Positions 498-17,530 of a stretch of 64,000 nt of DNA are shown here, piece after piece. Source of the stretch: Gemmatimonadota bacterium (GTDB lineage: Bacteria; Gemmatimonadota; Gemmatimonadetes; Palauibacterales; Palauibacteraceae). Both the position numbers and the translations under genes were made by a program. Location: assembly GCA_039589195.1 (NCBI GenBank), contig JBDHHV010000017.1, forward strand, positions 11,237 through 75,236. Reading direction: 5' to 3'. Below the pieces are notes generated by a model that was not told the origin of the DNA, searched no databases, and saw only the letters and a list, made by a program, of their open reading frames with translations. The first letter of the stretch is position 1, and every line of letters starts with the position of its first letter.

Positions 498-543
498 ATC
501 GCATCCACCGGGGCGACCGCCTCAGGGCAGGTAACTCCCGGGG

Positions 544-996
544 CTACCACACGGGCTCGTAGCCCTCTGCCACCAGGCTGGGCGGAGACCAGATGTGAAC
601 CTTGCGGGTCGGTCCGTTCTCATCCTCGAGCGCGCCCTCGACGTGGGTCCATGCGAGGATCGCACCCTTGAGGTTGAGGGCGTTCCAGCCCCGGTTGGCA
701 AGCTCCTGTGCGTACAGACCGCTTCGGTGCCCCACCGTGCAATACGCGACCACGGTGGCTCCTTCGTACGCGACCGGGTTGCTGTCGAAGTCGTCCGATG
801 TGATCGCACCGGCGATCATCGAGACCGCTTGCTCGTCGGGCCGCCGTACATCCACGACGACCAGATTCTGCTCGCCGAGCCGCTCCTTCAGCTCTTCCAC
901 GGTCAGCTCGCCGACCTCGGGGAAAAGCCGTTTCGACCTTCGATATACCGCTTCGATCCGTTGTCGCTTCGCCTCGTCGGACCTCGGCTTCCACAT
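544..996 (-). CDS. Single-domain rhodanese-like sulfurtransferase (150 aa)
   Basis: C-terminal part of ORF 544..2271, from ATG at 996 (MWKPRS...). VVVDVRRPDE and active-site loop YCTVGHRS. The upstream part of the long ORF is antisense shadow of the 1096 gene. Confidence 0.85.
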   Translation of the reverse strand: MWKPRSDEAKRQRIEAVYRRSKRLFPEVGELTVEELKERLGEQNLVVVDVRRPDEQAVSMIAGAITSDDFDSNPVAYEGATVVAYCTVGHRSGLYAQELANRGWNALNLKGAILAWTHVEGALEDENGPTRKVHIWSPPSLVAEGYEPVW

Positions 997-1095
997 CTGC
1001 TTTTCTCCCTCGAGGGGGCGTTGCCGAACGCGCACTGAAACGCTTACCTGAGAGCCTGGTCCGATAGGATACAACCAAAAGCGGGGGAAATATAC

Positions 1096-2259
1096 ATGTC
1101 TACCGGGAATGCGAAGAACCTCGTTTTGGTCGGCGGAGGGCACGCACACATCCACGTGCTGGAGCGCTGCATCGAAGACGGACCCCCGGATGCCAGGCTC
1201 ACCCTGGTCGTCGACCGCCGGATCGCCGTGTACTCGGGGATGGTACCGGGCTACGTGGCGGGCCAGTACCGGGCAGAGGAACTCCAAATCGATGCGGTCG
1301 CGCTCGCAGAGCGCGCCGGTGCGGAGGTGGTCCTGGCGCCAGCGACCGGAGTCGATCTCGAGGGGAAGCGGATTCTGATCGAAGGTGGCGAGGGGGTGCC
1401 CTACGACATCGCGTCCTTCGATATCGGATCGACCGTGATCGGACTGGACGTGCCCGGAGTCCTCGAGCACGCGAGGCCCACGCGCCCGATCGGCGAGTTC
1501 GTGCAGGATTTCGAGGCCGTGGTGGAGGAGGCGCGCGCACACCAGGGAGATGACCCCTTCCAGGTGATCGTCGTGGGCGGGGGAGTCGGGGGCGTGGAAC
1601 TGGCGTTCGCCGTCGATCAGCGTCTGCGGGATGCCGTGGGCCGGGCTCCGCAGGTGATTCTCGTCGAGTTCGGGCCTCGCATCCTGTCTCGCTACCCAAG
1701 GTCGATTATCCGGCGCGTGGAGCGCTCGGCGGCGGCACGAGGCATACAGATCCGATGCAACCGCGAGGTGGTGGCCGCCGACGCGGAGTCCGTGCGCCTC
1801 GGCGACGGCGAGCGAATCGGCTGCGACGCGCTGATCTGGGTCACGGGGCCTACCAGCCACGAAGTGTTCCGGGACTCGGAGCTGGCCACCGATGAGCGGG
1901 GGTTCGTGTTGATAAGACCCACGCTCCAGTTCCGCGACTACGATGACCTGTTCGCGGTCGGTGACTGCGCGACTTTCATCGACTATCCCGACACGCCGAA
2001 GGCGGGGGTCTACGCGGTCCGCGAGGGTCCTTACATCACAGACAACCTTTACGCCGCCGTGGAGGGCCGACCGCTCCGCCCGTACAAGCCACAGGGAGAT
2101 TTCCTCACCCTCATGAACCTGGGCGACGGTCGTGCTATCGGGGCCAAGTGGGGGTTGTCGTTCGAGGGTCGCTGGGTGATGCGCTGGAAGGACCGGATCG
2201 ACCGAAAGTTCATGCACCGCTTCCAGGCCCTGGCCGGCATGCTCCCCACACCCGCGTAG
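1096..2259 (+). CDS. Pyridine nucleotide-disulfide oxidoreductase, TIGR03169-like (resembles the N-terminal domain of fused SelD proteins), stand-alone
   Basis: LVLVGGGHAH, YSGMVPGYVAG, second Rossmann motif VVGGGVGGVE, FAVGDCA, PKAGVYAVREG, C-terminal WKDRIDRKFM. No SelD domain follows. Confidence 0.85.
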   Translation: MSTGNAKNLVLVGGGHAHIHVLERCIEDGPPDARLTLVVDRRIAVYSGMVPGYVAGQYRAEELQIDAVALAERAGAEVVLAPATGVDLEGKRILIEGGEGVPYDIASFDIGSTVIGLDVPGVLEHARPTRPIGEFVQDFEAVVEEARAHQGDDPFQVIVVGGGVGGVELAFAVDQRLRDAVGRAPQVILVEFGPRILSRYPRSIIRRVERSAAARGIQIRCNREVVAADAESVRLGDGERIGCDALIWVTGPTSHEVFRDSELATDERGFVLIRPTLQFRDYDDLFAVGDCATFIDYPDTPKAGVYAVREGPYITDNLYAAVEGRPLRPYKPQGDFLTLMNLGDGRAIGAKWGLSFEGRWVMRWKDRIDRKFMHRFQALAGMLPTPA

Positions 2260-2425
2260 GGGGCCCTCCATCCATCCCGGTCCATCGCGCAGCGCCGGGC
2301 GCTCCTCGCGTGTCTTTGGGGAGGCTGCTGGGCTGGATCTTGCCGCTTCGCCAGGGTACGCAGAGGCTCGGCGTCGCGCGAATGACCCCAGGAGGCTGCT
2401 GAAGAACCCTATGCACGGTGAGTAG

Positions 2426-5296
2426 TTGAGCTTCCAACCGCCATCTGATCCGAAGGGGCCCGTGTCATCGACGTCAGTGCCGAGCGGGCTGCACCCGCGA
2501 GTGGCGTTCCTCGCGGCGTGTATCGTTGGCGGCGGCCTGATCGGCGCGTCCCCCCTGCGCGCCCAGGTCGGCGAGTCCGATTCCAGCGCCGGCGACCGCG
2601 ATTCAGGCGTGACGGCCCGCGATGTGCCTACCGCGCTCGCCGTGCGCCGGGTCGAGGCGATTCAGGTCGACGGGCGGGCGGACGAGGACGCGTGGCAGGC
2701 CGCGCCGGCGGCGACCTCGTTCGTGCAGGGAAACCCGAACGAAGGAGCGCCCCCCGCGCAGCCGAGCGCGGTTCGCGTCCTGTTCGACGATGGTGCCCTA
2801 TACGTGTTCGCGCGGCTGTACGAGACCGATCCGGATCGCATCGCCAACCAGTTGGTGCGGCGTGACGAAGAGGGCCAGTACGATTACTTCGAGCTCTCGC
2901 TCGACCCCAACCACGATCACCTGACCGGGTATCGCTTCCGTGTGAGCGCCGCCAACCAGCAGAGCGACTCGTATCTGTTCGGCGACACTCGGGAGGACGA
3001 CAACTGGGACGCTGTCTGGTCCTCCGCCACGAGTCGGGACTCCGTCGGGTGGAGCGTCGAGATGCGGATCCCGCTCTCTCAGATCCGTTACGAGGCGGCC
3101 ACCGGCGCACAGACCTGGGGTGTGAACTTCACCCGCAGGAGACTGGCGTCGAACTCCACGAGCTATTTCTCGCTCCAGTCGCGGACCGTGCGCGGTCGGG
3201 TCAGCCAGTTCGGCGCGCTGGACGGGATCGAGGTCAGCAGCGATGCGCGCAGGCTGGAGATCCTCCCTTACCTCGCCTCGGAATTCCACCGTGCCGAGGG
3301 GGAGCCGGGAGATCCGCTCTTCGATGGGACCGAGTTGACGCCGCGATTCGGGCTCGACGTCCGCGCCGGCCTGGGCACGGCGTTCAGCGTCGATGCCACG
3401 GTCAACCCCGACTTCGGTCAGGTCGAGGTCGATCCGGAGGTCATCAACCTGACGGCCTTCGAGACGTTCTTCCCCGAGAAGCGGCCGTTCTTCGTCCAGG
3501 ACGCGCAGATCCTCAGCTTCGCGCTCGGGAGCCGGTCCGGAGGCGGCGGCGGCGGCGGCGGGTTCAGGGGAGGAGATCAGCTCTTCTTCTCACGACGGAT
3601 CGGCCGCACACCCCACGGGAGCGGGCCGGACGATGCGGACTTCACCGACATTCCGGGCCAAACGACGATCCTGGGGGCGGCGAAGCTGACCGGGCGCACA
3701 GACGGCGGGCTCTCCGTCGGGCTCCTGACCGCCGCGACCGCGGCGGAAAGGGCGGACATCTACTTCGAGGAGGATGGTCTCTTCGACAAGTCGCTTGTGG
3801 AGCCGGCGTCCCAGTTCGGCGTCGCCCGCTTGCAGCAGGACTTCCGGAACGGGGGGACGACCCTCGGCGCGATCGCGACGGGGATGCGCCGGGATCTACC
3901 CTCGAGCGGGGCGTTCGATGACCTGTCATCGAACGCCTATTCGGCGGGCCTCGATTTCGAGCATCAGTGGGGTGGCGCGCAGAACCGGAATTGGCGCCTC
4001 TTCGGGTTCCTCGCCGGCACGCACGTGCGGGGCCCCAGCGATGCGCTGCTCGACATCCAGGAGTCCTCGAACCACTACTTCCAGCGCCCCGACGCCGATT
4101 ACCTCGAGGTCGACTCCACCGCCACTTCCATGACGGGCATCAACTGGCGACTACAGTTCTCGCGTCAGAGCGCGGAGCACTGGACGTGGTCGGTGTGGCT
4201 GGCGCAGATCACGCCCGGGTTCGAGGTGAACGACCTGGGGTTCTCCCGATCCTCCGAGAGACTCGACGGAGGTGCCTCCGTCTCGTACCGGAGCATCGAG
4301 CCCGGCCCGCTGTTCCGGAGCTATTCGGTGCGCCTCACCACGTTCCACAGCTGGCGTCAGGACCTGCTTGACGACTTCTTCGATGCCGGGAACTGGGCGC
4401 AAACCTACAAGCGTGGGACGTTCAGCCTGTCCAGCAATTTCGACTTCCTCAACAACTGGGGACTGAATCTCAGGACCTCGTGGAACCCCCAGAGCCTGAG
4501 CGACACGAAGACCCGCGGTGGGCCGCTGATGACCGAGCCCGGCTCGTTCAGTTTCAACGTCTCGGTGAACACGGATCGGCGAAGGGCGGTGAGCCTCCGG
4601 CCGTCGGTCGAGTATCGACCCCGGTCCCGCGGCAACGGATACGAGGTGAGCACCGGGCTCGGCGTCTCGCTCCGACCGACTTCCAGTTGGGAGATCGAGT
4701 TCCAGCCGCGCTTCAGCCGCCAGCGAACAGGCTCGCAGTACGTTACGGACAGCGACGCCGTCTTCTACGAGCCGACGTACGGCGACCGGTACCTGTTCGG
4801 TGATCTCCTGCGGCACTCGTTCTCCGTGGAGACGCGCATCAACGTCGCGTTCTCCCCCGACCTCAGCCTCCAGCTGTTCGCGCAGCCGCTCGTCTCCACA
4901 GGCGAGTACCTGTCGTATCGCCAGCTCGAGACCTCCGAGACATTCGATTTCCTCGAGTTCGAAGAGGGCGTTGCGACGGAGACCGAGGACGGTGTGCTCT
5001 GCGGCTCCGGCAGTACCTGCGTGCTGGCTGGGGAACGCTACGTAGACTTCACCGGCGATGGGCTGGCGGACGACTCGTTCGGTGACCGGAACTTCAATAT
5101 CCGCTCTCTGCGCAGCTCGGCCGTGTTGCGTTGGGAGTACCTGCCGGGATCGGTGCTCTTCCTCGTGTGGCAGCAAGCGCGTCGGGACGAGTTGGAGAAC
5201 GGGGACTTCAACCTCGGACGCGATCTGGGCGGCATCTTCTCGGCCCCCGGCGAGGACACGTTCATCGCGAAGGCGAGCTTCTACGTAGACTTCTGA
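2426..5296 (+). CDS. DUF5916-type outer-membrane beta-barrel with N-terminal CBM9/DOMON-like domain (copy 1)
   Basis: Signal peptide-like hydrophobic stretch. IQVDGRADEDAW and WSVEMRIPLSQIRY (CBM9-like). VNPDFGQVEVD and FPEKRPFF (DUF5916). C-terminal aromatic barrel end (FYVDF). TTG start uncertain. Confidence 0.8.
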   Translation: MSFQPPSDPKGPVSSTSVPSGLHPRVAFLAACIVGGGLIGASPLRAQVGESDSSAGDRDSGVTARDVPTALAVRRVEAIQVDGRADEDAWQAAPAATSFVQGNPNEGAPPAQPSAVRVLFDDGALYVFARLYETDPDRIANQLVRRDEEGQYDYFELSLDPNHDHLTGYRFRVSAANQQSDSYLFGDTREDDNWDAVWSSATSRDSVGWSVEMRIPLSQIRYEAATGAQTWGVNFTRRRLASNSTSYFSLQSRTVRGRVSQFGALDGIEVSSDARRLEILPYLASEFHRAEGEPGDPLFDGTELTPRFGLDVRAGLGTAFSVDATVNPDFGQVEVDPEVINLTAFETFFPEKRPFFVQDAQILSFALGSRSGGGGGGGGFRGGDQLFFSRRIGRTPHGSGPDDADFTDIPGQTTILGAAKLTGRTDGGLSVGLLTAATAAERADIYFEEDGLFDKSLVEPASQFGVARLQQDFRNGGTTLGAIATGMRRDLPSSGAFDDLSSNAYSAGLDFEHQWGGAQNRNWRLFGFLAGTHVRGPSDALLDIQESSNHYFQRPDADYLEVDSTATSMTGINWRLQFSRQSAEHWTWSVWLAQITPGFEVNDLGFSRSSERLDGGASVSYRSIEPGPLFRSYSVRLTTFHSWRQDLLDDFFDAGNWAQTYKRGTFSLSSNFDFLNNWGLNLRTSWNPQSLSDTKTRGGPLMTEPGSFSFNVSVNTDRRRAVSLRPSVEYRPRSRGNGYEVSTGLGVSLRPTSSWEIEFQPRFSRQRTGSQYVTDSDAVFYEPTYGDRYLFGDLLRHSFSVETRINVAFSPDLSLQLFAQPLVSTGEYLSYRQLETSETFDFLEFEEGVATETEDGVLCGSGSTCVLAGERYVDFTGDGLADDSFGDRNFNIRSLRSSAVLRWEYLPGSVLFLVWQQARRDELENGDFNLGRDLGGIFSAPGEDTFIAKASFYVDF
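3542..3559 (+). repeat. In-frame (GGC)6 microsatellite encoding a poly-Gly loop
   Basis: ggcggcggcggcggcggc read directly; protein SGGGGGGGFRGG. Confidence 0.8.
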
Positions 5297-5496
5297 GCCC
5301 CCCGGATCCCGCGCTCCCAGGTCCCACCCGGGCTCTACTCAACCCCGTCCCGGTGACCCCGCCAAGGTCGCGCCCCGATGCCGCGATCAGTAACCGCATG
5401 CAAGAGAACTACTTACGGCAGCGTTCTGGAAGCCCGCCGGCAGATTGCCTACCTTGGGGCAGTTCAGCTGTTCGGCCCGACTCGGAGGTGCAGGCC

Positions 5497-5914
5497 GTGA
5501 CCCCGCTCCCGCTCGACGATCTGTCATCCGCCTATCACCCACGCCCCGGGGGACTCCCACTGTATGCCGGCGGCGCCAAGGGAGGCCTGCTGGCTGGCAC
5601 GGCCGTGTTCGCGGTCCTGTTTCTCTACGACCTGTTCAGGGTTGGCCAAGTATGCCTTTCTCCATTTCTGCGTCTTCGCGGCGATCGGGATCGGAGCCGC
5701 CCTCTTCTTCCAGCGCGGAAGCGTAGCGGTGAACACGCTGACGGGAGCCCTGTATGGCATCGTCGCGTGCTCCGCGGCGTTCTACACGGGAATCGCGCTG
5801 TTGACGGGGGGCTTTCTGGCCACACCCGACTGGCGCCTCGTGGTCGGGGCCAACGCGGTCGCCGGGGTGATCATGGTCGCCAACCTCCTGGGTGACCGGG
5901 ACGCAGCCTGCTAG
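5497..5914 (+). pseudogene. Small multi-pass membrane protein interrupted by a +1 frameshift near 5638
   Basis: GGAGG RBS (5484-5488) then GTG 5497. Frame 1 reads MTPLPLDDL...GTAVFAVLFLYDLF, then frame 2 continues GLAKYAFLHFCVFAAIGIG... Removing A5638 gives one continuous hydrophobic protein. Could be a sequencing error. Confidence 0.6.
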
Positions 5915-7503
5915 GTTTGCCCGGCTCGCAGCACGCGGTCCAGCGTCATGATGTGCTCCGCCAACGTGCGGCGTAATGCGTTGAAGGAACCGAGGGAGGC
6001 TGCGCGGGCGGGGTCGACCAGCTCGAAGCCGTCCGCCGGAAACGATGTGTCTCGCTCGGCGTATGCGGTCCAGTCCGGGATCACGGACTCCTCCAATCGC
6101 TCCAACAGCTCCGCCGCCGCCTCCGCCTCCCAGATCCCGGTGCCCGTGGCCCTCGCCGCGGCGATCCGCTCCTCCAATGCGATCAGGTACTTCAGGTCGT
6201 CGATCCCTTCCCGACTGCGCTCGTAGTCCAGGGTGGGTCGCAGCGAGCCTTCCCCGGTGTGTATGACCGAGCCTCGCTGGTTCGTTCCGAGATTGTAGTA
6301 CCACTCCAGCTTTCCACCGACCCCGAGCTTTGACATGCGCCAGAAGAAGAACCCGAACGGGAGGCGGCCGCTGCCGGTGTTCACGAACCACGGGATTGCA
6401 CCGGTCTCGCGGCGGAGCTCGGAGAGGAACGTCTCGTTCACCAGCTTGCGGCCCCGGTTGTGGTGATCGATCCCGTCCCACCCGTTGTTGAACGCGGCGA
6501 CGCTCAGGTAGGGCGCCATCTCCATGACCTCCCGGTACCCGTTCATGTCGCTCGTCGTGGCGAGCTCCGGTAGCTCCTCGAAGACCAGGCGCGCGAGCTG
6601 CCCGCCCTCGCGGACCCCTTCGAGGCCGCGGTTGGTGTACTCGTCGCCGATGCTGAACAGGGTGAGTTGACCGCGCTCCCGTGTCTCACGGTATAGCCTA
6701 CGCATGACCTCGATGTACTTCTGTTGGAAGCGCTTCGAGTCGATGGGCCCGTATCCGGGCAAGCGAGTGAGGCTCAGCTGCATCGAGGTCCCGAAGTACA
6801 GCGGTTGTGTGAATCCGGCGACCTGGTAGGCCTCGATGAACGCGCCCAGCTCGGTCGTATCGTCGTCATCGATGGGCAAGTGAAACCCGTATAGCGGAGC
6901 CACGGCCGTCATGCCGTGCTCGCGCATGTCGGCCAGCTGGCGGACTAGCGCCTCCGGGTCGCGCGGGTGGGAGTAGTTGTAGCCGAGCGCGAAGGGCGGC
7001 TCGGCCAACCGAAGCGGGAGCACCTCCAGCACGATGTCGAGGCGGGCGAGAGTCTCCCCCGCGCTCGTTACGGTCACCGTGCCCGCGTAGTCCCCGGGCT
7101 TGGCGTCATGCGGAACTCGGACCGTGAGCCAGAACAGGCGAGCGGATCCGGCGGACAACGTAAGGCTCGGACCGAGATCGGTCAGAACGCTGCGACCCAA
7201 CTCCGGGATGCGCTCCACCGAACGTACCCGCACGTCGGCCGCCGGGATCACACCCATCGGTCCGCTCAGGGCGCTGCCCCTGATGGTGACCTCCTGCAGC
7301 GGAGCGCTGGAGCCCAGGGCGAAGGCGACCGGCTCGTACTCGCCTGGCGCGGCGAACAACCGGGCCGTGCGGTTTCGCTGCCCTCCGAGTGGCTCGGGCA
7401 CCGCGCGCTCCGGCGCCATGTAATCCGTCACGTACAGGTCGATCTCGCGCGCCGGCTCCTGGAGCGCACTCAGAAGCAACGCGACAAGAAGCAGCACGTT
7501 CAT
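5911..7503 (-). CDS. Secreted GH123-like / DUF4091-containing putative glycoside hydrolase (530 aa)
   Basis: Signal peptide MNVLLLVALLLSALQ. N-terminal Ig-like domain (APGEYEPVAF, FWLTVRVPHDAKPGDYAG). Adjacent acidic pair SIGDEY. DUF4091-like C-terminus ERSREGIDDLKYL. Confidence 0.65.
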   Translation of the reverse strand: MNVLLLVALLLSALQEPAREIDLYVTDYMAPERAVPEPLGGQRNRTARLFAAPGEYEPVAFALGSSAPLQEVTIRGSALSGPMGVIPAADVRVRSVERIPELGRSVLTDLGPSLTLSAGSARLFWLTVRVPHDAKPGDYAGTVTVTSAGETLARLDIVLEVLPLRLAEPPFALGYNYSHPRDPEALVRQLADMREHGMTAVAPLYGFHLPIDDDDTTELGAFIEAYQVAGFTQPLYFGTSMQLSLTRLPGYGPIDSKRFQQKYIEVMRRLYRETRERGQLTLFSIGDEYTNRGLEGVREGGQLARLVFEELPELATTSDMNGYREVMEMAPYLSVAAFNNGWDGIDHHNRGRKLVNETFLSELRRETGAIPWFVNTGSGRLPFGFFFWRMSKLGVGGKLEWYYNLGTNQRGSVIHTGEGSLRPTLDYERSREGIDDLKYLIALEERIAAARATGTGIWEAEAAAELLERLEESVIPDWTAYAERDTSFPADGFELVDPARAASLGSFNALRRTLAEHIMTLDRVLRAGQT

Positions 7504-8213
7504 GGGCGGGGGTCGAGTACGAGGGTGGCGTCGTCCAGCCAGATCGTCCCAGCACCCGTCATGTTGAGATAGACGCGGAAGCCCCGAGCACCGGGGCTCA
7601 ACCGGCCGCTCACCTCGATCCGTTCCCACGCGGGTCCTCCGCGCCTGTGCACGGATCCGCTCGCACCTGCGTCAAAGCTCACGAGGAGCTCGTTCTCACC
7701 CGATCCCTTCGCCCAGACCGAGAACCGATAGTCCTGCGATCCCGCGACCGCTGGCAGGATGGGTGTGAAGACCGCGATCCTGCCGGGGGTGCCGGTGGAC
7801 GTTATTCGCGCCGAGTAGCGCCCCGATCGCACGTGCCGGGCCCGATCCTCCCAATGGGCCTCGTACTCCCCTTCCCACCGCCACCCTTGCCACCAATGCC
7901 AGCGCGAGCGGTCATCGCGCGTGTTGCGGTTGATCGCTTCGAAACCGCCGTTTTGGATCAAATCGGGGGGGCTCTCGACGGCGAGCATTGTGGGCTTGAA
8001 GGTCCCCTCGAGCCGTGCAAGGAGCATGTTCCGTCGGCGCTGGTAGGCGGCCTCACTGAGCAGACCAGCCATCTTCTGCACATCGATCGCGGCCAGCGCC
8101 CTCTCGACTCTCTCCTTCGACCACAGCTCCTCCGTCAGGTCGGCTCGGGTCTGAGCGCTCAGACCCGATGTGAGTGCAACGATGCCCAGCCCGCACAGGA
8201 AGGCTCTTCCCAA
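7500..8213 (-). CDS. Secreted protein with a short helical N-terminal region and a CBM4/9-like carbohydrate-binding domain
   Basis: Signal peptide, then DLIQNGGFE...SGRYSARI...YRFSVWAKG...IWLDDATLV, typical of galactose-binding-fold CBMs. Its stop overlaps the start of the downstream GH-like gene. Confidence 0.65.
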   Translation of the reverse strand: MGRAFLCGLGIVALTSGLSAQTRADLTEELWSKERVERALAAIDVQKMAGLLSEAAYQRRRNMLLARLEGTFKPTMLAVESPPDLIQNGGFEAINRNTRDDRSRWHWWQGWRWEGEYEAHWEDRARHVRSGRYSARITSTGTPGRIAVFTPILPAVAGSQDYRFSVWAKGSGENELLVSFDAGASGSVHRRGGPAWERIEVSGRLSPGARGFRVYLNMTGAGTIWLDDATLVLDPRP

Positions 8214-8252
8214 TACTCTCGCTCCTCGTCACTACCGTTGGGCCGTCTCGTG

Positions 8253-8284
8253 AAAAAGCGGGACCGCCGTGAGCGGCCCCGCTT
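8253..8284 (-). terminator. Rho-independent terminator of the TPR lipoprotein gene
   Basis: Minus strand reads aagcggggccgc-tcacg-gcggtcccgctt followed by T residues; 12-bp stem, 50 nt after the stop at 8334. Confidence 0.7.
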
Positions 8285-8333
8285 CCCTGCCGTGAGCGAC
8301 TATCCGCGAGCACCAGACGGCGACCGCGACCGC

Positions 8334-9884
8334 TTACATCGCGAGCTTCTCCATCGCCTCCGCACGGACGAGCGCGAACCCCACGAAGTTGAAGTTGGAC
8401 TCCGCGACCTCCGTCAACAGCGTCCGGGCTTGCTCCGTGTTCCCGGCGCCTTCATGGGCCAGCGCGAGCAGGTACTTGTTGTACACGTTGGCGAGATTCC
8501 CCTGCTCCAGGTGCAGGATGGCTTCGGCCCAATTCTCCCGCTCGAGGGCGATGACCCCCTGCAGCTCGTGGACCGGCTCCATCTTCCTCGGATTGGGATC
8601 GGGCTCTACAAGCCGGGCGCACTCGTCTGCTTTCGCGGCGGCGGTGTCGAAGTCGTTCCTGCGCGCCGCGAGCATGCCATCCCAATACGAGATGTTCGCT
8701 TCCTGGCCTCGGCGGAACTCCTCCGTGCCCACGGTCGCGGCGTCGATCATCATGAACTCGCTCCGCCGCGCGAGCACTCGCTCCGCCGCCGGGAACAGAT
8801 CGTGGTGCAACGTGATGTAGGCCAGATTGGTCAGCGCGTTGATCCTCTGGCCGTTCCGCTCGTGCTCCGGGATTTCGATCTCGCCGCTATCGATGGCCGT
8901 CAGAACGGCTTCCAGCTCGTCGATCGCGGCTTGCGGGTTGCCGGCGTGCACGTGGGTGAAGGCGCGGAAGTTCGCGAAGCCAGCCTTCTGCCCTCCGATG
9001 CCCATGGCGATGGCGGCATCGTAGTCGGCGCGCGCGGCATCGTAGTTCCCCAGGAACGAGTTGATGTGGCCGCGTTTCAGCGTCGGGATCCCGTCGCTCG
9101 GGTCCAGCTCGGCGCTGCGTCCGTAGGCCTCCCGCGACTCCTCGAGCCGCTGCTGTGCTCGCAGGACATCACCCAGCATCTCGACGGGCTGCCCTTCGGT
9201 CGGCGCGAGCTCGACCGCCCGCCGCATATGCTCCTCGGCCAGCGTGTAGTCCTTGGGATCGCTGAACAGGAAGTTGGTGCCGAGTTGCAGGTGCGCGGCG
9301 ATCATGCCGGGCGCCAGATCGATCGCCTCCATCATCGTGGCGCGCGCCGCTTCATTTCGGTTCAGCGTGGCCTGGACTCCTGCCAGGGCCAACCGGGCGC
9401 GAGGGCTCTCCGGGACCAGCTCGACGAGCCTCTGACCCAATTCCAGCGCCCCCTCGATGTCGCTCGCCAGAAACGCCTTGTTGATGTCTATGAGAATCCC
9501 TTCGGCCTCGGTCGCCGTCTCCGAATGCTCGGCCGCCATGTTCGTGTACTCGTTGAACTCATCGAGCGACGTCGCGTTGTTGGCGGCGTTCACGTAGGCG
9601 TGGGTGAACTCCGGGTCCAACTCGATCGCCCGCTTGAACAGGTCCCTCGCCTCGTAGCCCCGGCCCACGTCGGACGCGTACTGACCCTCCATGAAGGCGG
9701 ACCTGGCCTCTTCGGACGTGGTCGTTACCGGGAGGACCATCACGACTTCCGTTCCGTCCATCCCAACCGTCGGGCTGGCCATTTCGGTCGTTTCGGTCAC
9801 CTCACCGGCCTGGTCGCCCCCGCAAGCCACGAGCCCCGACAAGAGCGCGAACGATGCCAGGATGTGAGCGGTGCCTTTCTTCAT
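8334..9884 (-). CDS. TPR-repeat lipoprotein (516 aa)
   Basis: ATG 9884 with AGGAGG upstream. Lipobox LVAC-GG. Multiple TPR-like repeats (ARDLFKRAIELDPEF, AEEHMRRAVELAP, YGRSAELDP). Confidence 0.8.
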   Translation of the reverse strand: MKKGTAHILASFALLSGLVACGGDQAGEVTETTEMASPTVGMDGTEVVMVLPVTTTSEEARSAFMEGQYASDVGRGYEARDLFKRAIELDPEFTHAYVNAANNATSLDEFNEYTNMAAEHSETATEAEGILIDINKAFLASDIEGALELGQRLVELVPESPRARLALAGVQATLNRNEAARATMMEAIDLAPGMIAAHLQLGTNFLFSDPKDYTLAEEHMRRAVELAPTEGQPVEMLGDVLRAQQRLEESREAYGRSAELDPSDGIPTLKRGHINSFLGNYDAARADYDAAIAMGIGGQKAGFANFRAFTHVHAGNPQAAIDELEAVLTAIDSGEIEIPEHERNGQRINALTNLAYITLHHDLFPAAERVLARRSEFMMIDAATVGTEEFRRGQEANISYWDGMLAARRNDFDTAAAKADECARLVEPDPNPRKMEPVHELQGVIALERENWAEAILHLEQGNLANVYNKYLLALAHEGAGNTEQARTLLTEVAESNFNFVGFALVRAEAMEKLAM

Positions 9885-10145
9885 GCTGGGTCCTCCTTGG
9901 ATGAATCGACGGCACCGGATCGCGCAGGTTGCACGCTCACCGAGTGCGTGGGGGTCGGTTGTCTTCGGAAACCGCGTCGGGCGAGAAGCCAAAAGGAGGC
10001 CGGCGCCCGGGACCAGGTGGTATACGGCGAAACTGCAAACGTCTAACCTCAACTACCGGGTATCCTGACCCTATGTCCGCCCGTCCCGTAATCACGCAAT
10101 TTCCCGCAGTCGTGACCGCGGCGCAAGCGTGGGAGCTCCGGGGTG

Positions 10146-11198
10146 CTACTCCTCGCCAGGGGCGCCGACCCCAGCCAGCACGGCCTCGGAATCATCCCCT
10201 CCTGCCCCGGCGGTTGCCGGCTCGTTCGTGCTGTGGACTGGAGCCCCGTCCCCATCCTCGGTCCGCAGCATGCGCGAATAAAGGCTGAGATCGGAATCCG
10301 CCACCCACTTGAAGAGAAGGCGCGTCCACGAGGTGTGTGCCACCAGGCTCTCGTAGTACTCGGGCGCCGCCGCCTTGAGGCTCGGCAGACGGTTCCACGG
10401 GATGGATGGGAAGTCGTGATGCTCGTTGTGGTATCCGACGTTGAACGCGACCCGGTTCGCCGCCCCATAGTAGCTGTAGGTCTCCTGCGATGTCCCCATC
10501 AAATAGTGCCGCTGGATCCACCGCGCACCCAGTGGGTGAAACCCGGCCGAGAAGAACATGGAGGCGAACAGATACCAGAACGCGGCCGGACCCCACACCT
10601 GCCACACGAGGACATCGACAGACACGATGATGATCCAATTCAGGACCACCCAGCGGTCCACCATCCGGACCTCTTTGACACGAAACGTGTGCGTCACGGC
10701 AATGATCGGGAACAGGAACAGCCACAGCGCCTTCCGGATTCCGGAGTTCCCCACCAGCTTCGCTTCCCATTCGTTCGGCACGTCCGCATCCAGTTCGTAA
10801 ACCCCCTGATGGGAGTGGTGCGCCAGATGGTAGTGCTTGAACGACACCGAGCTGGGGAGGACGCTCGGAAAGTTCGCCAGGATACCCGCCAGCGTGTTCA
10901 GCACCCTCGACTTGAACAGGAGGTTGTGCGCGCACTCATGGACCATCACGAAAAGGGCATGGTTCGCGACCGCGCCCGCCGTATAGGCCAAGAGCAAGAG
11001 CAGCCACCAGGGCCGCCCGACGATCCAGGACGCAAGGAACATCTGCAGACCGACGAGCGCCAGGATTCCGAGAAAGCTGAACGGGTTTCTGCCGATGTGC
11101 TCTCGAACATCCGGGTGCTCACGCAAGATCGCCCGGGTACGCGCCTTATGTGGCTCGGGGCTGTCCGAGTACGAGAAGCCCTCGGGCACCGTGGCCAT
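10146..11198 (-). CDS. Membrane fatty-acid desaturase of the sphingolipid delta-4 desaturase/C4-hydroxylase (DEGS/DES1-like) type
   Basis: Three His boxes HECAH, HYHLAHH, HNEHH. N-terminal PEPHKARTRAILREHP resembles the Lipid_DES motif. QETYSYYG...FNVGYHNEHHDFPSIP and C-terminal SLYSRM match DEGS1-type sequence as recalled. Confidence 0.8.
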   Translation of the reverse strand: MATVPEGFSYSDSPEPHKARTRAILREHPDVREHIGRNPFSFLGILALVGLQMFLASWIVGRPWWLLLLLAYTAGAVANHALFVMVHECAHNLLFKSRVLNTLAGILANFPSVLPSSVSFKHYHLAHHSHQGVYELDADVPNEWEAKLVGNSGIRKALWLFLFPIIAVTHTFRVKEVRMVDRWVVLNWIIIVSVDVLVWQVWGPAAFWYLFASMFFSAGFHPLGARWIQRHYLMGTSQETYSYYGAANRVAFNVGYHNEHHDFPSIPWNRLPSLKAAAPEYYESLVAHTSWTRLLFKWVADSDLSLYSRMLRTEDGDGAPVHSTNEPATAGAGGDDSEAVLAGVGAPGEE

Positions 11199-11325
11199 AT
11201 CCTTGCAGCCTTCTTCCAGGAGAAAAGGGGTTACGGGGCCGCTTACCTTATATGGCGGGCAGGCACGCAGGCAAGACAGTGCCACGTCACCGTGCGCACC
11301 GGCGTGGCTTCCGCCCCGCCCGAAT

Positions 11326-11757
11326 TCAACCGTCGTAGCTCTCGTCGGAGGCGATCCGGCGAATCCTCTCCAGGCGGCCCGCGACCTGATCCACCGAGCG
11401 CTCGAGTGGGGCCCGCGCCCGAGGATCCAGTGGGCCTCCTCCCGTCAGTGGCGCGGGGCGACAGTCCCACACTCGCGCCCACGACAGGGCGGCCCAGGCG
11501 CCGACTTCCCGCAGCAGATCGGGACCTGGTCGCTGCAGCGAAAGTCCGAGATTCCGAGCCGCGTCGTCCAGCTCCGCCAGCAACGCCCGAAGCTCGGCCT
11601 CCATCTCGGCCAGTCGCCGCCCACGATGCTCGTCCCCCCGCCCGGCGTCCCGGTCGACCCGCTCGAGCAGGCGTCCGGCCTCGACCGCCAGCCGTCCGAA
11701 CCGAACCTCCAGCCGCCGGCGTTGGGTCTCTGTCAGCTCGGGAGGGGCGTCGGTCAT
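11326..11757 (-). CDS. Hypothetical alpha-helical protein (143 aa)
   Basis: Fits between two same-strand genes, coding-like composition, coiled-coil character. No confident family. Confidence 0.6.
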   Translation of the reverse strand: MTDAPPELTETQRRRLEVRFGRLAVEAGRLLERVDRDAGRGDEHRGRRLAEMEAELRALLAELDDAARNLGLSLQRPGPDLLREVGAWAALSWARVWDCRPAPLTGGGPLDPRARAPLERSVDQVAGRLERIRRIASDESYDG

Positions 11758-11785
11758 GACGGCACCCGAAGCCGATCCGCTCGGC

Positions 11786-14180
11786 TCAGGGGACAAGCTC
11801 CTGTCGATGCGGTCTCAGGACGAACAAACCCTCCTTCATGCTCGACACGATCACCGTCCCGCTCTCGAAGAACGGAAATGCCGTCCAGGCACCGTTGAAG
11901 CCTGCGGGGTCGCCCTCGTACGGCGTCGTGTCGAAGAACGCCACCTCGACCGGGTTCTCCGGATCGGAGATGTCGAGGACCCGCAAGCCGGCCTGATAGT
12001 TGGCCTGGTATACGCGATCGCCCTTCACGTACAGGTTGTGGTCGGTGGCTCCGGTCGAACCGAGGTGCTCGCCGACGAGCACGGGATCGTCCAGATCGGA
12101 CACGTCCCATATGAGCATCCGCGTTCGCTCGGTCCGTCCTACAAGCTCGTCCAGCTCGTCATCCAGATAGAAGTAACGCTGGTCCTCGGTGAGCCACCCC
12201 TGGTGGACGTAGGCCAGACCGGGATAGCTCGCCGCCGCGAGCGGCAGCGGATCTCCCTTGTCCGTCACATCCACGATCCGCAGCGCTGTCTCGTTCGACG
12301 CGAAGCAGATCTCCCGGTCTTGGTAGTCCTGGTCAGGCCCGCGGTAGACGACGCACTGTGCGTCGTGCGTTCGCCCTTGCCAGATCAACCCGGTCTCACT
12401 GTCCATGTAGCAACCGGCGAAGGTGGGATCCAGCGGGTCGCGGATGTCCACGATGTGCAACCCGCCTCCGCACGTCTCCCCTCCCCCGCTATTCCCCACG
12501 GTGTAGGCGAAGCCGCTCTCGGTATCGATCACGAGGTTGTGAGCGCTGTGGATCCCGTCGTAGCGCACGTCGGGCTCGAACGTGACCGGCGGGTCGCGCA
12601 CGTCGCGTAGCCGGGTGAGGTCGAACACCAGCATGCCGTGATCACCCGCGCCATCGCCCGTGAAGAAGAGGTGGTCTTCGTACACCTTCAGGTCACGGGC
12701 CCCGCTGCGGGGGGCGGGCAGCGCGCCAAGGTACACGGGCATCGTCGGGTCGGTGATGTCCACGAACGCCGCCCCACCCGAGCGGCCCACGAGCGCGTAC
12801 TCACGACCCGTCTCCGGATCCGTCCAGCCCCACAGGTCGCTGAGCCCCTCCCCCGGGGTACCGCCCAGCTCGGAGATCGGCAGGAAGGCGAGGAGGTTTA
12901 CATCACGGCATGCAAACCGCTCCGCTGCCCCCGCTTCGCACGGCACCTCCGCTCCCGCAACCGTCTCGAGTCGGCCGCCGGGATCCAGCCACACCGCGTC
13001 CGCCCACCCTCCCGAGTCGTCTCGCTTGAACGCGGCCGCGCGTCCGATCCCGCCGTCTGCCAGCGGCGCGCCCGCGACGGCAACCTGGGGACCCAACCCG
13101 ACCGAGGCCCCCAAACGGTCGCCGGGCTCGAGACCCCGCACGCGGAGCGGGCCCGCCCGCTGCCATGCGCCGTTCGACCCCTCTCTCGTGAATGGGTAGA
13201 CGGCCCCACGCCGTTCGTTCGACCCCGGCCCACCGACCCAGAGCTCACCGCCGGCGATGGCGAGAGCCGACCCGAACGCATCGCCCGGCTGGCTCGTGGG
13301 TGGGCTCAGCCGACCCCTCTCGCTCCACGACCCGGTGGAGGGATCCATCGCGAAGGCGATGACCACACCGCCCGTTGCCTGTGAGCCCGGCGCTCCGACC
13401 AGCGCGGAGCCACCGTCGAGCGCCACGGCGCTCCCGAACCCCGCTCCGGCACCCAGACCTTCCGGGACCAGCCGTGCCGTCTGCGTCCATGTGCTACCGC
13501 CGTCATCTCTCTCGAACACGTACACGGACCCCGACGTACCGCTCCGCGGCGCGCCCACGAGAGCGCGGGCTCCCTCGATCGCCAGCGATGCGCCGAACTG
13601 GCCGGACGCGCCGCCGTCGATCGGTTCGAGCTCCCCCCTTTCCAGCCAGCCGTTCGAGCCGGACTCCCGCTGGAAGACCCGCACTCCGCGGGGGGTGCTC
13701 GGTCCACCCGGGACCGCCACCAATGCGACGTCGTGATCGACGGCGACGACCCTGGGGGCCGGCTGCAGGATGCGCATGACTGTCCCCAGGTCGAGGGCCG
13801 CCTGGGCGTGCTCTCCCACCGGTGCTGGTCCAGCCGCCGGTCACCCCACGCTCCCACGCGTCGGCACCCCAGCGTACGTCGGGGTCGCCACCTCCGACGA
13901 GCAGCAGATCGTCCGCGAGCGCGATCGATCCGCTAAACCCCTCACCGGTCTGCTCGCCTCCGCGAGGTCGGAGGCGCTCCGCCACTTGCCAGGCTCCATC
14001 CTCCCCTTGCCCGTATACGTACACGGTCGCGGGCCCTCGCCCCACGTTCGGCTTGAGCACGAGCACCTGCCGGCCCTCCGCGGCCACGGCGCGCCCGAAC
14101 TGATCTTGAGGCCACAGCGATTGAGAGGCGGACAGCAGTAGAAGTGCGGCCACCGAAGACGCGCGTGCGATCCTGTTCAT
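11786..14180 (-). pseudogene. Choice-of-anchor B family secreted protein with FG-GAP/integrin-like repeats, split by a frameshift near 13820
   Basis: The N-terminal ORF (ATG 14180, signal peptide MNRIARASSVAALLLL, QFGRAVAAEG) changes frame into ORF 11786..13819, which has FG-GAP repeats (FGASLAIEG, FGSAVALDG) and the LVIVD/choice-of-anchor B region (SDLWGWTDPETGREYA, HQGWLTEDQRY, DHNLYV, WTAFPFFESG). Confidence 0.75.
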
Positions 14181-14387
14181 GGGGACGTTCCGATCCAAGA
14201 GTGCGAGGCGCCGAAACCGAGCGGCGCGGAAGCCACGAAGGTGCGGAAGATGGGTCGTCCCCCACCCTCCGGCCAGTCACCGGCCATCACACCGGAGTGT
14301 CACTCACTCGCACCACTCGCACCCGCTGGCTAGACTCTCCTCAGCGACCTGCTCGTCTCCTCGACCACGCATCGGAGGCCTTCGACC

Positions 14388-16622
14388 ATGATTCACGAGA
14401 CCGGTTCGCTCGTCAGACGCCGCACCTCGCATGCTCCCTTCCGGCGCCAGCTGGCCGCCGTGGCGATCGCATCGATGGTATCCCCGTTAGCGGGCACGCT
14501 CCCGCTGGTCGCGCAGGATCCGGGGAGTGAGGACGGAGACCGCTGGACACCAGCCCTCAGCATGAAATACCGCGCCATTCAGGGGACGGCGGTCTCGCCG
14601 GATGGCGGCCGCGTGGCGTACGTCGTCAGGACACCGCTGATGGAGGGGCCGCAGTCGGAGTATCTGAGCCACATCTGGCTCGCCAACACCGACGGTTCCG
14701 GGGCGCGCCAATACACGCGTGGTGAAGAGTCCGCCGGCAGCCCCTCGTTCTCTCCGGACGGCGAATGGCTCGCCTTTACTACGGGTCGTGGCTCGGAGGA
14801 GGAGAATGGGGGCAGGAACCAGGTCTGGATTCTCCCGCTGACCGGGGGCGAGGCGCGGCCGGCGACCGACGCCCGATCAGGCGTCGGCGTGTATCGATGG
14901 TCGCCCGACGGCACCCGGATCGCCTACGTCATGCGCGACCCCGAAACGAAAGAGGAGAAGAAGGCCAAGGATGAGAAGACGGATGTCATCCTCGTCGACC
15001 AGAACTTCAAGTACGGGCACCTCTATGTCGTCGAGGTGGACCCCGACGCTCCCGAGGTTCCCGAGGCGACGCGCCTGACCGGGGGCGAGTACCACGTTAC
15101 CGGTTTCGACTGGTCTCCCGACGGCACCCGGATCGTCTTCGGGCACCAGGCCGATCCGCGCATCAACACCGGCCGACTGTCGGGCGATATCGCGATCGTA
15201 TCCGTCCCTGCGGCGGCGGACATCGAAGCCATGCGGGAAGCGGCGGCCGCGGCGGACTCCGGTGAAGAGACGGGAGAGGAGGGCGAAGAGGAGGGCCAGG
15301 AGGAGACCGGCATCGAGATGAAGGCCATGGGCGAGGTTACCCAACTCGTCACGGGTGCGGGCGTCGAGGGCAACCCCCGCTGGTCACCGGACGGCCGCTG
15401 GATCGCGTTCGCTTCCACGGGCCCGCAGATCGAGCCCATCGGACTCGGAGACCTCTACGTCGTATCTCCCGGCGGGGGCGAGCCACGCATGCTGGCCGAA
15501 ACCCCGAACCGGAGCGCGAGCGTCATCGGCTGGTCGGGCGACAGCGGGCACCTCTTCCTGAACGAGGCGCTCGGGACGACGCGGCACGTGATCGCCGTCC
15601 CCGTTCAAGGCGAAGAGATTCGCCACGTGAGCTCGGGCGCCGGCGTCATGGGCGGCGTATCGGTGACCCCCGATGGGGGACTCATGGCGTTTACGTGGCA
15701 AACCCCGGATGAACCGTGGGATGTCTACGTCTCCCCCACCGACTCCTATGCACCGACGCGCATCACCGATGCGCACGCGGACGTGCCACGACCCGAGATG
15801 GGGCGGACGGCACTCGTCGCATGGACCTCGCCCGACGGCACCCCGGTAGAAGGGCTGCTCACCTATCCGGTGGGCTACGAGTCCGGGCGGCGGTACCCGC
15901 TCATTCTGAACGTGCACGGGGGACCGGCGGGGGTGTACTCGCAGGGCTTCACGGGCTCCCCCGGCATCTACATGCTCCAGTACTTCGCCCAGGAGGGGTT
16001 CGCGATCCTGCGCCCCAACCCTCGAGGCTCGACCGGGTATGGGAAGGAGTTCCGCTACGCCAACTTCCGGGATTGGGGCTACGGCGATCTGAGCGATCTC
16101 CTGGCTGGCGTGGACCACGTGGTCGAGATGGGCGTGGCGCACCCCGACAGCCTGCTCCTCATGGGGTGGAGCTACGGGGGCTACATGACCTCGTTCGCGG
16201 TCACGCAGACCGACCGGTTCAAGGCGGCCAGCATGGGCGCCGGACTGCCGAACCTCGTGAGCATGACCACGACGACCGACATCCAGGACTATCTTGTCGG
16301 GCACATGGGGGCCGAGTTCTGGGAGGACTACGAGGAGTACGAGAAGCACTCCGCGATCTACCAAATCGCGAACGTGAGGACGCCTACGCAGGTGATTCAC
16401 GGACAGAACGATCTGCGAGTGCCGTTCACGCAGGGACAGGAGTTCTACCGGGCGCTGCAGCGTCGCGGCGTCCCGACCGAGTTCGTAGTCTACCCCCGCA
16501 CACCTCACGGTCCCCGTGAGCCGAAGTTCGTCATGGACGTCTCGGAGCGCATCCTGACGTGGTTCAAGAAACACCTGCGGCCCGAGACCGTCACGGCGGC
16601 TGCGGGAGAGGGCGGTAACTGA
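14388..16622 (+). CDS. Secreted S9 family (prolyl oligopeptidase / acylaminoacyl peptidase) serine peptidase with PD40 beta-propeller
   Basis: SPDG/WSPDG propeller repeats, LNVHGGP, NPRGSTGYG, nucleophile motif GWSYGG, HGQNDLRVP, terminal YPRTPHG. Confidence 0.92.
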   Translation: MIHETGSLVRRRTSHAPFRRQLAAVAIASMVSPLAGTLPLVAQDPGSEDGDRWTPALSMKYRAIQGTAVSPDGGRVAYVVRTPLMEGPQSEYLSHIWLANTDGSGARQYTRGEESAGSPSFSPDGEWLAFTTGRGSEEENGGRNQVWILPLTGGEARPATDARSGVGVYRWSPDGTRIAYVMRDPETKEEKKAKDEKTDVILVDQNFKYGHLYVVEVDPDAPEVPEATRLTGGEYHVTGFDWSPDGTRIVFGHQADPRINTGRLSGDIAIVSVPAAADIEAMREAAAAADSGEETGEEGEEEGQEETGIEMKAMGEVTQLVTGAGVEGNPRWSPDGRWIAFASTGPQIEPIGLGDLYVVSPGGGEPRMLAETPNRSASVIGWSGDSGHLFLNEALGTTRHVIAVPVQGEEIRHVSSGAGVMGGVSVTPDGGLMAFTWQTPDEPWDVYVSPTDSYAPTRITDAHADVPRPEMGRTALVAWTSPDGTPVEGLLTYPVGYESGRRYPLILNVHGGPAGVYSQGFTGSPGIYMLQYFAQEGFAILRPNPRGSTGYGKEFRYANFRDWGYGDLSDLLAGVDHVVEMGVAHPDSLLLMGWSYGGYMTSFAVTQTDRFKAASMGAGLPNLVSMTTTTDIQDYLVGHMGAEFWEDYEEYEKHSAIYQIANVRTPTQVIHGQNDLRVPFTQGQEFYRALQRRGVPTEFVVYPRTPHGPREPKFVMDVSERILTWFKKHLRPETVTAAAGEGGN

Positions 16623-16687
16623 CGGCAGCTCGATCGCCCGACGCTACGCGCCGGACGTGAGTTCAACCCGAATCGAGGAGTAGGAAC

Positions 16688-17464
16688 GTGGCAGAGCCGT
16701 TCGCGCGCCGTCCTTCATCAGGGGTCAGCCTGTCCGCACGGATCATCGGCCGGCGTGCGGGTCGCACGGCCGTTCGCGAGCTCGAGGCGCTCTTGGCCCG
16801 GGCCAAGCGAGTGCGAGACGTATCCGTCGAGCGGGTGCACAAGCTGAGCGAGTCGCACGGAATCGACCTTCGCGAGCGGCTTCGAACCCCGCGCCGGAAC
16901 CTGTACCGCCGATTCCTCGAGCACTGTCTTCTGGACTGCTCGCTGACGGAGGAGGAGGCGGAGGAGCTCGCCCACCTTCGGAAGCTGCTGCACCTGGCGG
17001 ACAGCGATGTGGCGCATGTTCACGATGCGGTATCCCGTGCCGTGTACGGAGCGGCGCTCGAGGATGTGCTCGACGACCACAGGCTCGACGAGGACGAAGA
17101 GCGCTTCCTCACACGGTTGCGCGACGAGCTCGGGATGTCCGAGGTGGATGCGAGCCGCATGTACGAAGAGGAGGCTCGCCGCGCGCAGCAACGCCTTTTG
17201 TCGACGGTGCCGAACGCCGCCGTGTTCGCGTCTCGTGAAGGGGTCATCCAGCTGAAGGGTGGATCGACCGTCGGCCTCCAGGACGCCGTCCGGACGGTCG
17301 TGGATGAGTCCTGCCACGCGCTCCCGCATCTGAGCTGGGCCGAGTTGAGCGAAGTCAGGGTCCGGATCGAGAGCGGGCGGATCGCGGAGTGGCAGGTCAA
17401 GCTCAAGGCCGGGCTGGGGCCACCCCCGACGGCGTCCGGTCCCGACGCTTCCCCCGGGGTTTGA
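16688..17464 (+). CDS. Fusion of two TerB-like helical repeats with a C-terminal dodecin-like domain
   Basis: GAGGAG RBS, GTG start. Repeats DCSLTEEEAEELAHLRKLLHL and DHRLDEDEERFLTRLRDELGM. C-terminus VIQLKGGS...LSWAELSEVRVRIESGRIAEWQVKLKAGL follows the dodecin pattern. Confidence 0.6.
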   Translation: MAEPFARRPSSGVSLSARIIGRRAGRTAVRELEALLARAKRVRDVSVERVHKLSESHGIDLRERLRTPRRNLYRRFLEHCLLDCSLTEEEAEELAHLRKLLHLADSDVAHVHDAVSRAVYGAALEDVLDDHRLDEDEERFLTRLRDELGMSEVDASRMYEEEARRAQQRLLSTVPNAAVFASREGVIQLKGGSTVGLQDAVRTVVDESCHALPHLSWAELSEVRVRIESGRIAEWQVKLKAGLGPPPTASGPDASPGV

Positions 17465-17530
17465 CACAAGCGAGAACCCCGACAGCGACCCTCAACGGCC
17501 GTTCTCGTTGGCGAGCCGGCTCATCGGTCG

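Follow-up and report, generated by a model that had tools for sequence, protein, structure and literature searches.

The characterised bacterial sphingolipid pathways have been described as yielding (dihydro)ceramide by way of enzymes that, Spt apart, are unrelated to the eukaryotic ones, and DEGS1 is counted among "early eukaryotic" inventions in a 2026 review (PMC12993136). A survey of membrane desaturases from 2016 left the delta-4 sphingolipid group aside, with bacterial members not discussed (PMC5037126), and our literature searches found no characterised bacterial DEGS homologue. Here we analyse such a homologue, a 350-residue predicted membrane di-iron desaturase/hydroxylase denoted DES, encoded on a 64,000-nucleotide stretch of a marine Gemmatimonadota genome (the window). 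We put the probability at roughly 0.55 that, with O2, DES desaturates or hydroxylates dihydroceramide-type lipids of the organism itself at C4, a prediction made from its sequence and from the ceramide-type genes found elsewhere in the genome.

A Pfam search revealed the FA_desaturase domain (PF00487; 92.9 bits, E 3.5e-26, cut-off 29.7) and the Lipid_DES domain (PF08557; 34.2 bits, E 1.7e-08, gathering cut-off 23), both far beyond chance. The Lipid_DES match spans residues 37-68 of the open reading frame (ORF) when it is started at an upstream GTG, equivalent to residues 8-39 of the ATG-started 350-aa protein, and reached 38.1 bits in the whole-genome scan. BLASTP against a named fungal enzyme, the dihydroceramide delta(4)-desaturase of Hortaea werneckii, gave a full-length collinear alignment (36% identity over 333 aa, E 7e-70). 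The three His boxes of DES, which follow the di-iron ligand patterns HX3H, HX2HH and HX2HH, are HECAH (87-91), HLAHH (124-128) and HNEHH (257-261). In alignments of 12 and of 51 sequences, comprising both bacterial and eukaryote-clade members, H87, H91, H124, H127, H128, H231, H257, H260 and H261 are invariant and H221 nearly so, and the ETYSYYG and NVGYHNEHHD blocks are retained. Because both domains score above cut-off, the fungal enzyme aligns from end to end and the His ligands are invariant, membership of DES in the DEGS/DES1 family, with predicted catalytic residues intact, is well supported. The same evidence bears out a reading made previously from the sequence alone, which proposed a DEGS1/DES1 homologue with three His boxes and would have given up that proposal had Lipid_DES produced no hit; the motifs it quoted (PEPHKARTRAILREHP, QETYSYYGAANRVAFNVGYHNEHHDFPSIPWNRLP, APEYYESLVAHTSW and SLYSRM) are all present in the protein.

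The hydropathy profile of DES contains two hydrophobic hairpins (~40-86 and ~155-220), typical of membrane desaturases, and its AlphaFold model is all-helical (pLDDT 79, pTM 0.81). A PDB sequence search returned no match and no structure from the DEGS family, and NCBIfam offered no specific model, only weak matches to other desaturase-superfamily enzymes. The solved folds nearest to the model are desaturase-like subunits of the chloroplast FtsHi complex and the alkane monooxygenase AlkB (TM-score ~0.5, E 8e-6 to 4e-3). For a predicted structure, this fold search confirms a general di-iron membrane scaffold and nothing more specific. The best structural matches, chains K and M, come from the Chlamydomonas Orf2971/Ycf2-FtsHi import-motor complexes of the chloroplast, which implies that a desaturase-fold subunit is part of them.

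A quick maximum-likelihood tree was computed from 131 sequences, all of them family hits: representatives of the family, bacterial proteins with names and one human DEGS1 sequence (34% identity to DES), which serves solely as a label. The tree is unrooted and has no outgroup, and most of its tips are unnamed apart from one fungal cluster and some IMG labels. A single branch with SH-aLRT support of 100 splits it into two halves. One contains the window protein together with all eight added bacterial or long-contig sequences, five of which carry organism names (Gemmatimonadota, Bryobacteraceae, Chitinophagaceae, Bacteroidota); on the opposite side are the fungal enzyme and the human label sequence. 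On its own, bacterial side, the window protein clusters with further Gemmatimonadota sequences.

This topology bears directly on the idea that DES was recently acquired from a eukaryote or is eukaryotic contamination of the assembly, an idea to which the first definition of the family in eukaryotes and the absence of DES from all 15 further genomes sampled in the source organism's family lend some appeal. As the window protein lies with every named bacterial sequence across a fully supported branch from the fungal-enzyme clade, a recent transfer or contamination is excluded. Other Gemmatimonadota proteins are its nearest relatives (67-90% identity), its flanking genes are of typically bacterial kinds, and the GC content (65%) matches that of the surrounding window, so that this explanation is effectively refuted. 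A tree with DEGS sequences, which the sequence-only reading had proposed for separating horizontal transfer from bacterial origin, settles the matter for recent transfer and, being unrooted, gives no direction for any ancient exchange.

The source genome (4.36 Mb in 246 contigs, 91.5% complete, with the window on contig C17) encodes two alpha-oxoamine synthases (AOS), one of which is a clear Kbl. The other is spt-like: it scores 531 bits against the NCBIfam serine palmitoyltransferase model NF047600, below the equivalog cut-off of 640, compared with 383 bits for bioF and 370 for Kbl, and has orthologues in 141/251 Gemmatimonadota genomes. An assembly break divides the cluster to which it belongs: contigs C191 (1-1926) and C215 (1-2687) share an exact 114-bp end overlap, and joining them yields an intact 377-aa GNAT-like ORF that is followed on C215 by genes for an extended-SDR reductase, a PAP2_3 protein and an ECF-type sigma factor. 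In a complete relative (G058), a spt-like gene, a 376-aa GNAT-like gene, an extended-SDR "epimerase" reductase gene and a PAP2_3 membrane protein gene follow one another in this order on the same strand. The reductase of this relative matches PF01370 Epimerase (103.6 bits), and its best NCBIfam matches, OleD (a 3-oxo-lipid reductase) and HpnA, fall far below cut-off. We take Pfam PAP2_3 to include the inositol-phosphorylceramide and sphingomyelin synthases.

Scanning species-representative genomes for the GNAT-like gene, we identified 80 loci in more than 10 phyla. The spt-like gene directly adjoins the GNAT-like gene in 64 of the 80; 58 of the loci contain a CerR-like gene and 30 a PAP2 gene. 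This is the spt/bCerS/CerR arrangement described in the literature (PMC11334938). A homologue of the GNAT-like protein on a Roseomonas mucosa plasmid (39% identity, E 7e-64) is encoded directly 3′ of an LptF/LptG pair and 5′ of an NTP-transferase gene, near genes for an acyl carrier protein, a spt-type pyridoxal-phosphate-dependent aminotransferase, a diacylglycerol-kinase-family protein and a CDP-alcohol phosphatidyltransferase. The Caulobacter region has LptF2/LptG2 as CC_1156/CC_1155 and the ceramide synthase as CC_1154 (PMC11324152). The Roseomonas homologue occupies the position of CC_1154, and we therefore infer that the GNAT-like protein is bCerS-like. Assignment of bCerS to Acetyltransf_5 (PF13444) was dropped as wrong or irrelevant, this family having no match in the Caulobacter control genome or in the source genome. 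The genome search for spt, cerS and cerR that the sequence-only reading called for turned up a cluster of spt-like, bCerS-like, CerR-like and PAP2_3 genes on C191 and C215, assigned by score and synteny.

Two plasmid loci that came to light in this survey are of separate interest. On Roseomonas mucosa p1-AD2 the bCerS-like homologue is annotated as "dATP pyrophosphohydrolase", probably a misannotation, and a "sterol desaturase family protein" is encoded ahead of it. We presume this family to be the superfamily of the yeast sphinganine C4-hydroxylase SUR2; if that kinship holds, the Roseomonas protein is a candidate for an alternative bacterial route to C4-hydroxylated bases, encoded within a region of sphingolipid genes. 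The 666-kb linear plasmid of Streptomyces sp. NBC_01001 carries a four-gene operon encoding an AOS aminotransferase, a GNAT protein, a NAD-dependent epimerase and a condensation-domain protein, that is, a ceramide-type cluster with an extra condensation enzyme resembling those of nonribosomal peptide synthetases.

Comparison of DES with the bCerS-like gene in sampled genomes of three phyla revealed that every DES-positive genome also has the bCerS-like gene (56/56), and that none of the 270 genomes without the bCerS-like gene has DES. Both genes occur together in 16/16 DES-positive Gemmatimonadota against a base rate of 155/251 (62%; one-sided Fisher p 3e-4), and in 8/8 DES-positive Acidobacteriota against a base rate of 61/221 (28%; one-sided Fisher p 2e-5). 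The corresponding 32/32 in Bacteroidota are uninformative, because 287/301 genomes (95%) of that phylum carry the bCerS-like gene. With the spt-like orthologue as the marker, 15/16 DES-positive Gemmatimonadota genomes are positive; in the exceptional genome a contig begins close to the bCerS-like gene, and the spt-like gene may for this reason have been lost to a contig break. We regard the co-occurrence as supportive, not conclusive.

The reach of the bCerS-like GNAT family in Bacteroidota, where even very small genomes are among the carriers, is an observation in its own right. Bacteroidota make sulfonolipids as well as sphingolipids, and the spread of the gene seems broader than the documented extent of sphingolipid production there. 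In this phylum the bCerS-like protein may also serve the synthesis of sulfonolipids or other N-acyl lipids.

In the mechanism that we propose, DES would be a four-helix-hairpin membrane protein whose three His boxes hold a di-iron centre and whose N-terminal Lipid_DES segment is specific to the family. With O2 and an electron donor, it would act on an N-acylated sphinganine, either dihydroceramide or one of its head-group derivatives, and abstract hydrogen from C4 of the long-chain base. The result would be ceramide, with a 4,5-trans double bond, or phytoceramide, with a hydroxyl at C4, two outcomes between which sequence alone does not discriminate. The organism would supply the substrate itself through the spt-like, bCerS-like, CerR-like and PAP2_3 genes on C191 and C215. 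Eukaryotic DES1 uses cytochrome b5 as its electron donor. For DES, we infer the substrate, the regiochemistry, the choice between desaturation and hydroxylation, and the donor. As the genome also holds the bacterial ceramide-synthesis cluster, the organism probably modifies its own sphingolipids. DES is not needed for ordinary fatty-acid desaturation, because the genome's one further FA_desaturase-family protein, encoded on contig C163, is of the delta-9 type, with HRKHH and HNNHH boxes. This second desaturase has an unusually long C-terminal tail of ~100 aa that is rich in Ala, Arg and Glu and has a coiled-coil-like look.

Several observations weigh against C4 modification of self-made ceramides. 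The spt-like protein scores below the equivalog cut-off, the GNAT-like protein matches no curated family, and its assignment as bCerS-type is by synteny and not by direct comparison with the Caulobacter protein. DES has no conserved neighbours, and in none of the 80 bCerS-like loci examined does it come within 10 kb of the cluster, so that an operon-level link to ceramide genes is missing. The co-occurrence statistics ignore phylogeny; all DES-positive Gemmatimonadota except the source genome belong to one family, in which the cluster is nearly universal, and most genomes with the ceramide cluster do not have DES, which makes DES an accessory gene. Our literature searches turned up neither biochemical nor lipid data on a bacterial DEGS homologue.

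The missing operon link also leaves room for a DEGS-family enzyme that acts on some other lipid. It might use another N-acyl amino-alcohol lipid (a 1-deoxyceramide, a sulfonolipid- or capnoid-type base, or an N-acyl amino-acid lipid), or a glycerolipid whose acyl chain it would modify close to the head group. The near-universal bCerS-like family of Bacteroidota, in a phylum that makes sulfonolipids too, is in keeping with such a substrate. The products of bacterial ceramide pathways are diverse and include 1-deoxyceramides and sulfono-derivatives (PMC11334938), and membrane desaturases change substrate readily (PMC5037126). The same survey, however, gives no specificity other than sphingolipids for the DEGS clade (PMC5037126); the Lipid_DES segment and family-specific motifs of DES are fully retained, the bCerS-like gene accompanies DES in all 56 of the DES-positive genomes sampled, and an acyl desaturase of the delta-9 type is encoded separately. 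On balance we consider a different lipid substrate unlikely.

A further alternative, that DES acts on sphingolipids acquired from hosts, prey or the environment, would suit a patchy and standalone gene, and also an organism whose same-family relatives are named Candidatus Palauibacter, a genus that we take to include sponge-associated lineages. The source genome, however, has its own complete-looking spt/bCerS-like/CerR-like/PAP2_3 cluster, and with an exogenous substrate some DES genes would be expected among the sampled genomes that have no bCerS-like gene, where we found none. We judge this explanation highly improbable. The sequence-only reading had suggested either synthesis of C4-modified sphingolipids or remodelling of host and environmental ones; the cluster and the co-occurrence favour synthesis, remodelling is not needed to account for them, and the function itself stays a prediction. 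C4 modification of the organism's own dihydroceramide-type lipids is the reading that we adopt below.

The coordinates of DES, its flanking features and the other loci are collected in the table. Those that the sequence-only reading had given for the ORF are exact, with the addition that the gene lies on the minus strand, from an ATG at 11198 to a stop codon at 10148-10146. A longer ORF is possible from a GTG at 11285. Homologues are 320-360 aa long, and the closest ones (350 aa) cover 100% of the ATG-started protein. We chose the ATG because these nearest homologues align with it end to end and because a purine-rich stretch lies ~10 nt 5′ of it. A strict consensus promoter scan detected no promoter upstream of DES. 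By eye, a −35/−10-like pair (TTGCCT, a 17-nt spacer, TATAAG; a weak reading) can be found in the upstream region, and this pair suggests that DES is transcribed from a putative promoter of its own.

Coordinates of DES and of the other features discussed. Positions without a contig or accession are those of the window.
Feature	Location	Strand	Basis or remark
DES coding sequence (predicted DEGS-family membrane di-iron desaturase/hydroxylase, 350 aa + stop)	10146..11198	minus	translation, Pfam, alignments
Upstream non-coding region, with ribosome-binding-site-like GGAAGAAGG ~10 nt before the DES ATG	11199..11300	minus	read directly from sequence
TPR-repeat protein gene	8334..10052	minus	Pfam TPR families; 93 nt downstream of the DES stop, same strand
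CBM9-like/DUF5916 protein gene	2426-5296	plus	956 aa
GH123-N-like protein gene	5911-7629	minus	
Dodecin-domain ORF	16688-17464	plus	258 aa
spt-like gene	C191:667-1926	minus	NCBIfam NF047600 best match
CerR-like reductase gene	C215:~805-1749		54% identity to G058 protein
Delta-9-type desaturase gene	C163:1129-2262	plus	
Lipid_DES match, Bacteroidota	G461:C21:45104-45202		short frame
Lipid_DES match, Acidobacteriota	G647:C6:42727-42825		short frame
bCerS-like locus, Roseomonas mucosa plasmid p1-AD2	NZ_CP025188.1, 11225-13146		
Four-gene operon, Streptomyces sp. NBC_01001 plasmid	NZ_CP108712.1, 5766-10292		

None of the neighbours of DES in the window, which include the TPR protein, an FG-GAP/LVIVD protein, an S9 peptidase and the DUF5916/CBM9 protein, is lipid-related according to Pfam. 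The TPR gene is counted as context only, since it is not conserved beside DES in relatives. Nine Gemmatimonadota DES loci have only DES itself in common, and the DES neighbours on a Chitinophagaceae contig and on a 5.4-Mb contig are unrelated. DES is a standalone, single-copy accessory gene with a patchy distribution. The earlier statement that the window contains no spt or cerS gene holds for its Pfam-annotated part (~500-17500); the remainder was listed as ORFs only and was not searched for spt or bCerS. Elsewhere in the annotated part, a 258-aa ORF is an odd fusion, with a dodecin domain at the C-terminus and matches to chloroplast Tic110 and armadillo-like helical models in the N-terminal region. 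A 956-aa protein that combines a CBM9-like carbohydrate-binding domain with DUF5916 is encoded near a GH123-N-like protein, and the two may form a glycan-processing pair.

To place DES in its wider family, we searched ~5.8 billion proteins and scored 8000 candidates, among which 5425 proteins were homologues at E<=0.001. The family forms 408 clusters at 50% identity (E<=1e-30), and many of its members already bear the label "sphingolipid delta-4 desaturase" (IMG) or "fatty acid desaturase" (NCBI). The rarity implied by the sequence-only reading was therefore overstated: the bacterial DEGS family is large and already auto-annotated, and a single such gene is not unusual in itself. Among the matches listed, the nearest relatives are the Gemmatimonadota proteins already mentioned; the named relatives of the window's proteins are likewise Gemmatimonadota, and Candidatus Palauibacter is the sister genus within the family.

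By phylum, DES was present in 16/251 sampled genomes of Gemmatimonadota (6%), 32/301 of Bacteroidota (11%) and 8/221 of Acidobacteriota (4%); of the source organism's own family 16 genomes were sampled in total, and only the source genome carries it. Partial matches to the DES locus were found in marine and marine-sediment DNA metagenomes, and none of the RNA runs searched contains it. A plasmid collection gave one weak match only (27%), hence no sign of plasmid carriage. Lipid_DES also matched two short frames of 48-49 aa with an in-frame TAA, one in Bacteroidota and one in Acidobacteriota. Judged from their sequences these are likely decaying DES pseudogenes, which would be consistent with repeated loss.

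The value of the finding lies not in the rarity of the gene but in its testable link to bacterial ceramide synthesis. The complete co-occurrence is a concrete hypothesis that can be tested cheaply and indicates the genomes suited to the purpose. At somewhat less than even odds, we tentatively propose that the bacterial DEGS homologues are the missing tailoring step that introduces 4-ene ceramides or 4-hydroxy phytoceramides on Spt/bCerS/CerR backbones. They may then be the second enzyme, after Spt, that bacteria and eukaryotes share by descent in pathways that are convergent in other respects. Read in this way, the deep and clean separation of the bacterial from the eukaryotic clade would indicate an ancient inter-domain exchange, possibly with a bacterial origin of eukaryotic DES1. 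If this is true, the C4 double bond or hydroxyl that governs ceramide packing and signalling in eukaryotes is also produced by free-living marine and soil bacteria, and the evolutionary account of the sphingolipid pathway needs revision.

Among known systems, AlkB and the desaturase-like subunits of the Ycf2/Orf2971-FtsHi complexes (PDB 8sbb, 8xks, 8xqw) have the helical membrane di-iron scaffold in common with the DES model; identity is only 15-17% and the substrates differ. Caulobacter CC_0202 (CCNA_00202), a DesA-family desaturase/hydroxylase, is reported to hydroxylate the amide-linked acyl chain of sphingolipids (cited in PMC11324152). CC_0202 is thereby a precedent for a membrane di-iron desaturase-superfamily enzyme that tailors bacterial sphingolipids and is encoded away from the spt cluster. 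It is a member of another subfamily, Lipid_DES having no match in the Caulobacter control genome, and its reported target is the acyl chain, in contrast to the C4 position of the long-chain base on which DES would act. Eukaryotic DES1/DEGS1 and the bifunctional desaturase/C4-hydroxylase DEGS2 (KEGG K04712) have the same two-domain PF08557 and PF00487 architecture and a similar length. These eukaryotic enzymes also have in common with DES the three His boxes and the motifs PH..R, ETYSYYG, NVGYHNEHHDFP and SW...YSR. Unlike eukaryotic DES1, the window protein belongs to a separate, apparently bacterial clade across a fully supported split, and its host, unlike eukaryotes, would make any ceramide via the bacterial Spt/bCerS/CerR route. 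The other bacterial DEGS homologues, from Gemmatimonadota, Acidobacteriota (Bryobacteraceae) and Bacteroidota (Chitinophagaceae), at 54-90% identity are equal to DES in length and domains and differ from it in nothing substantive.

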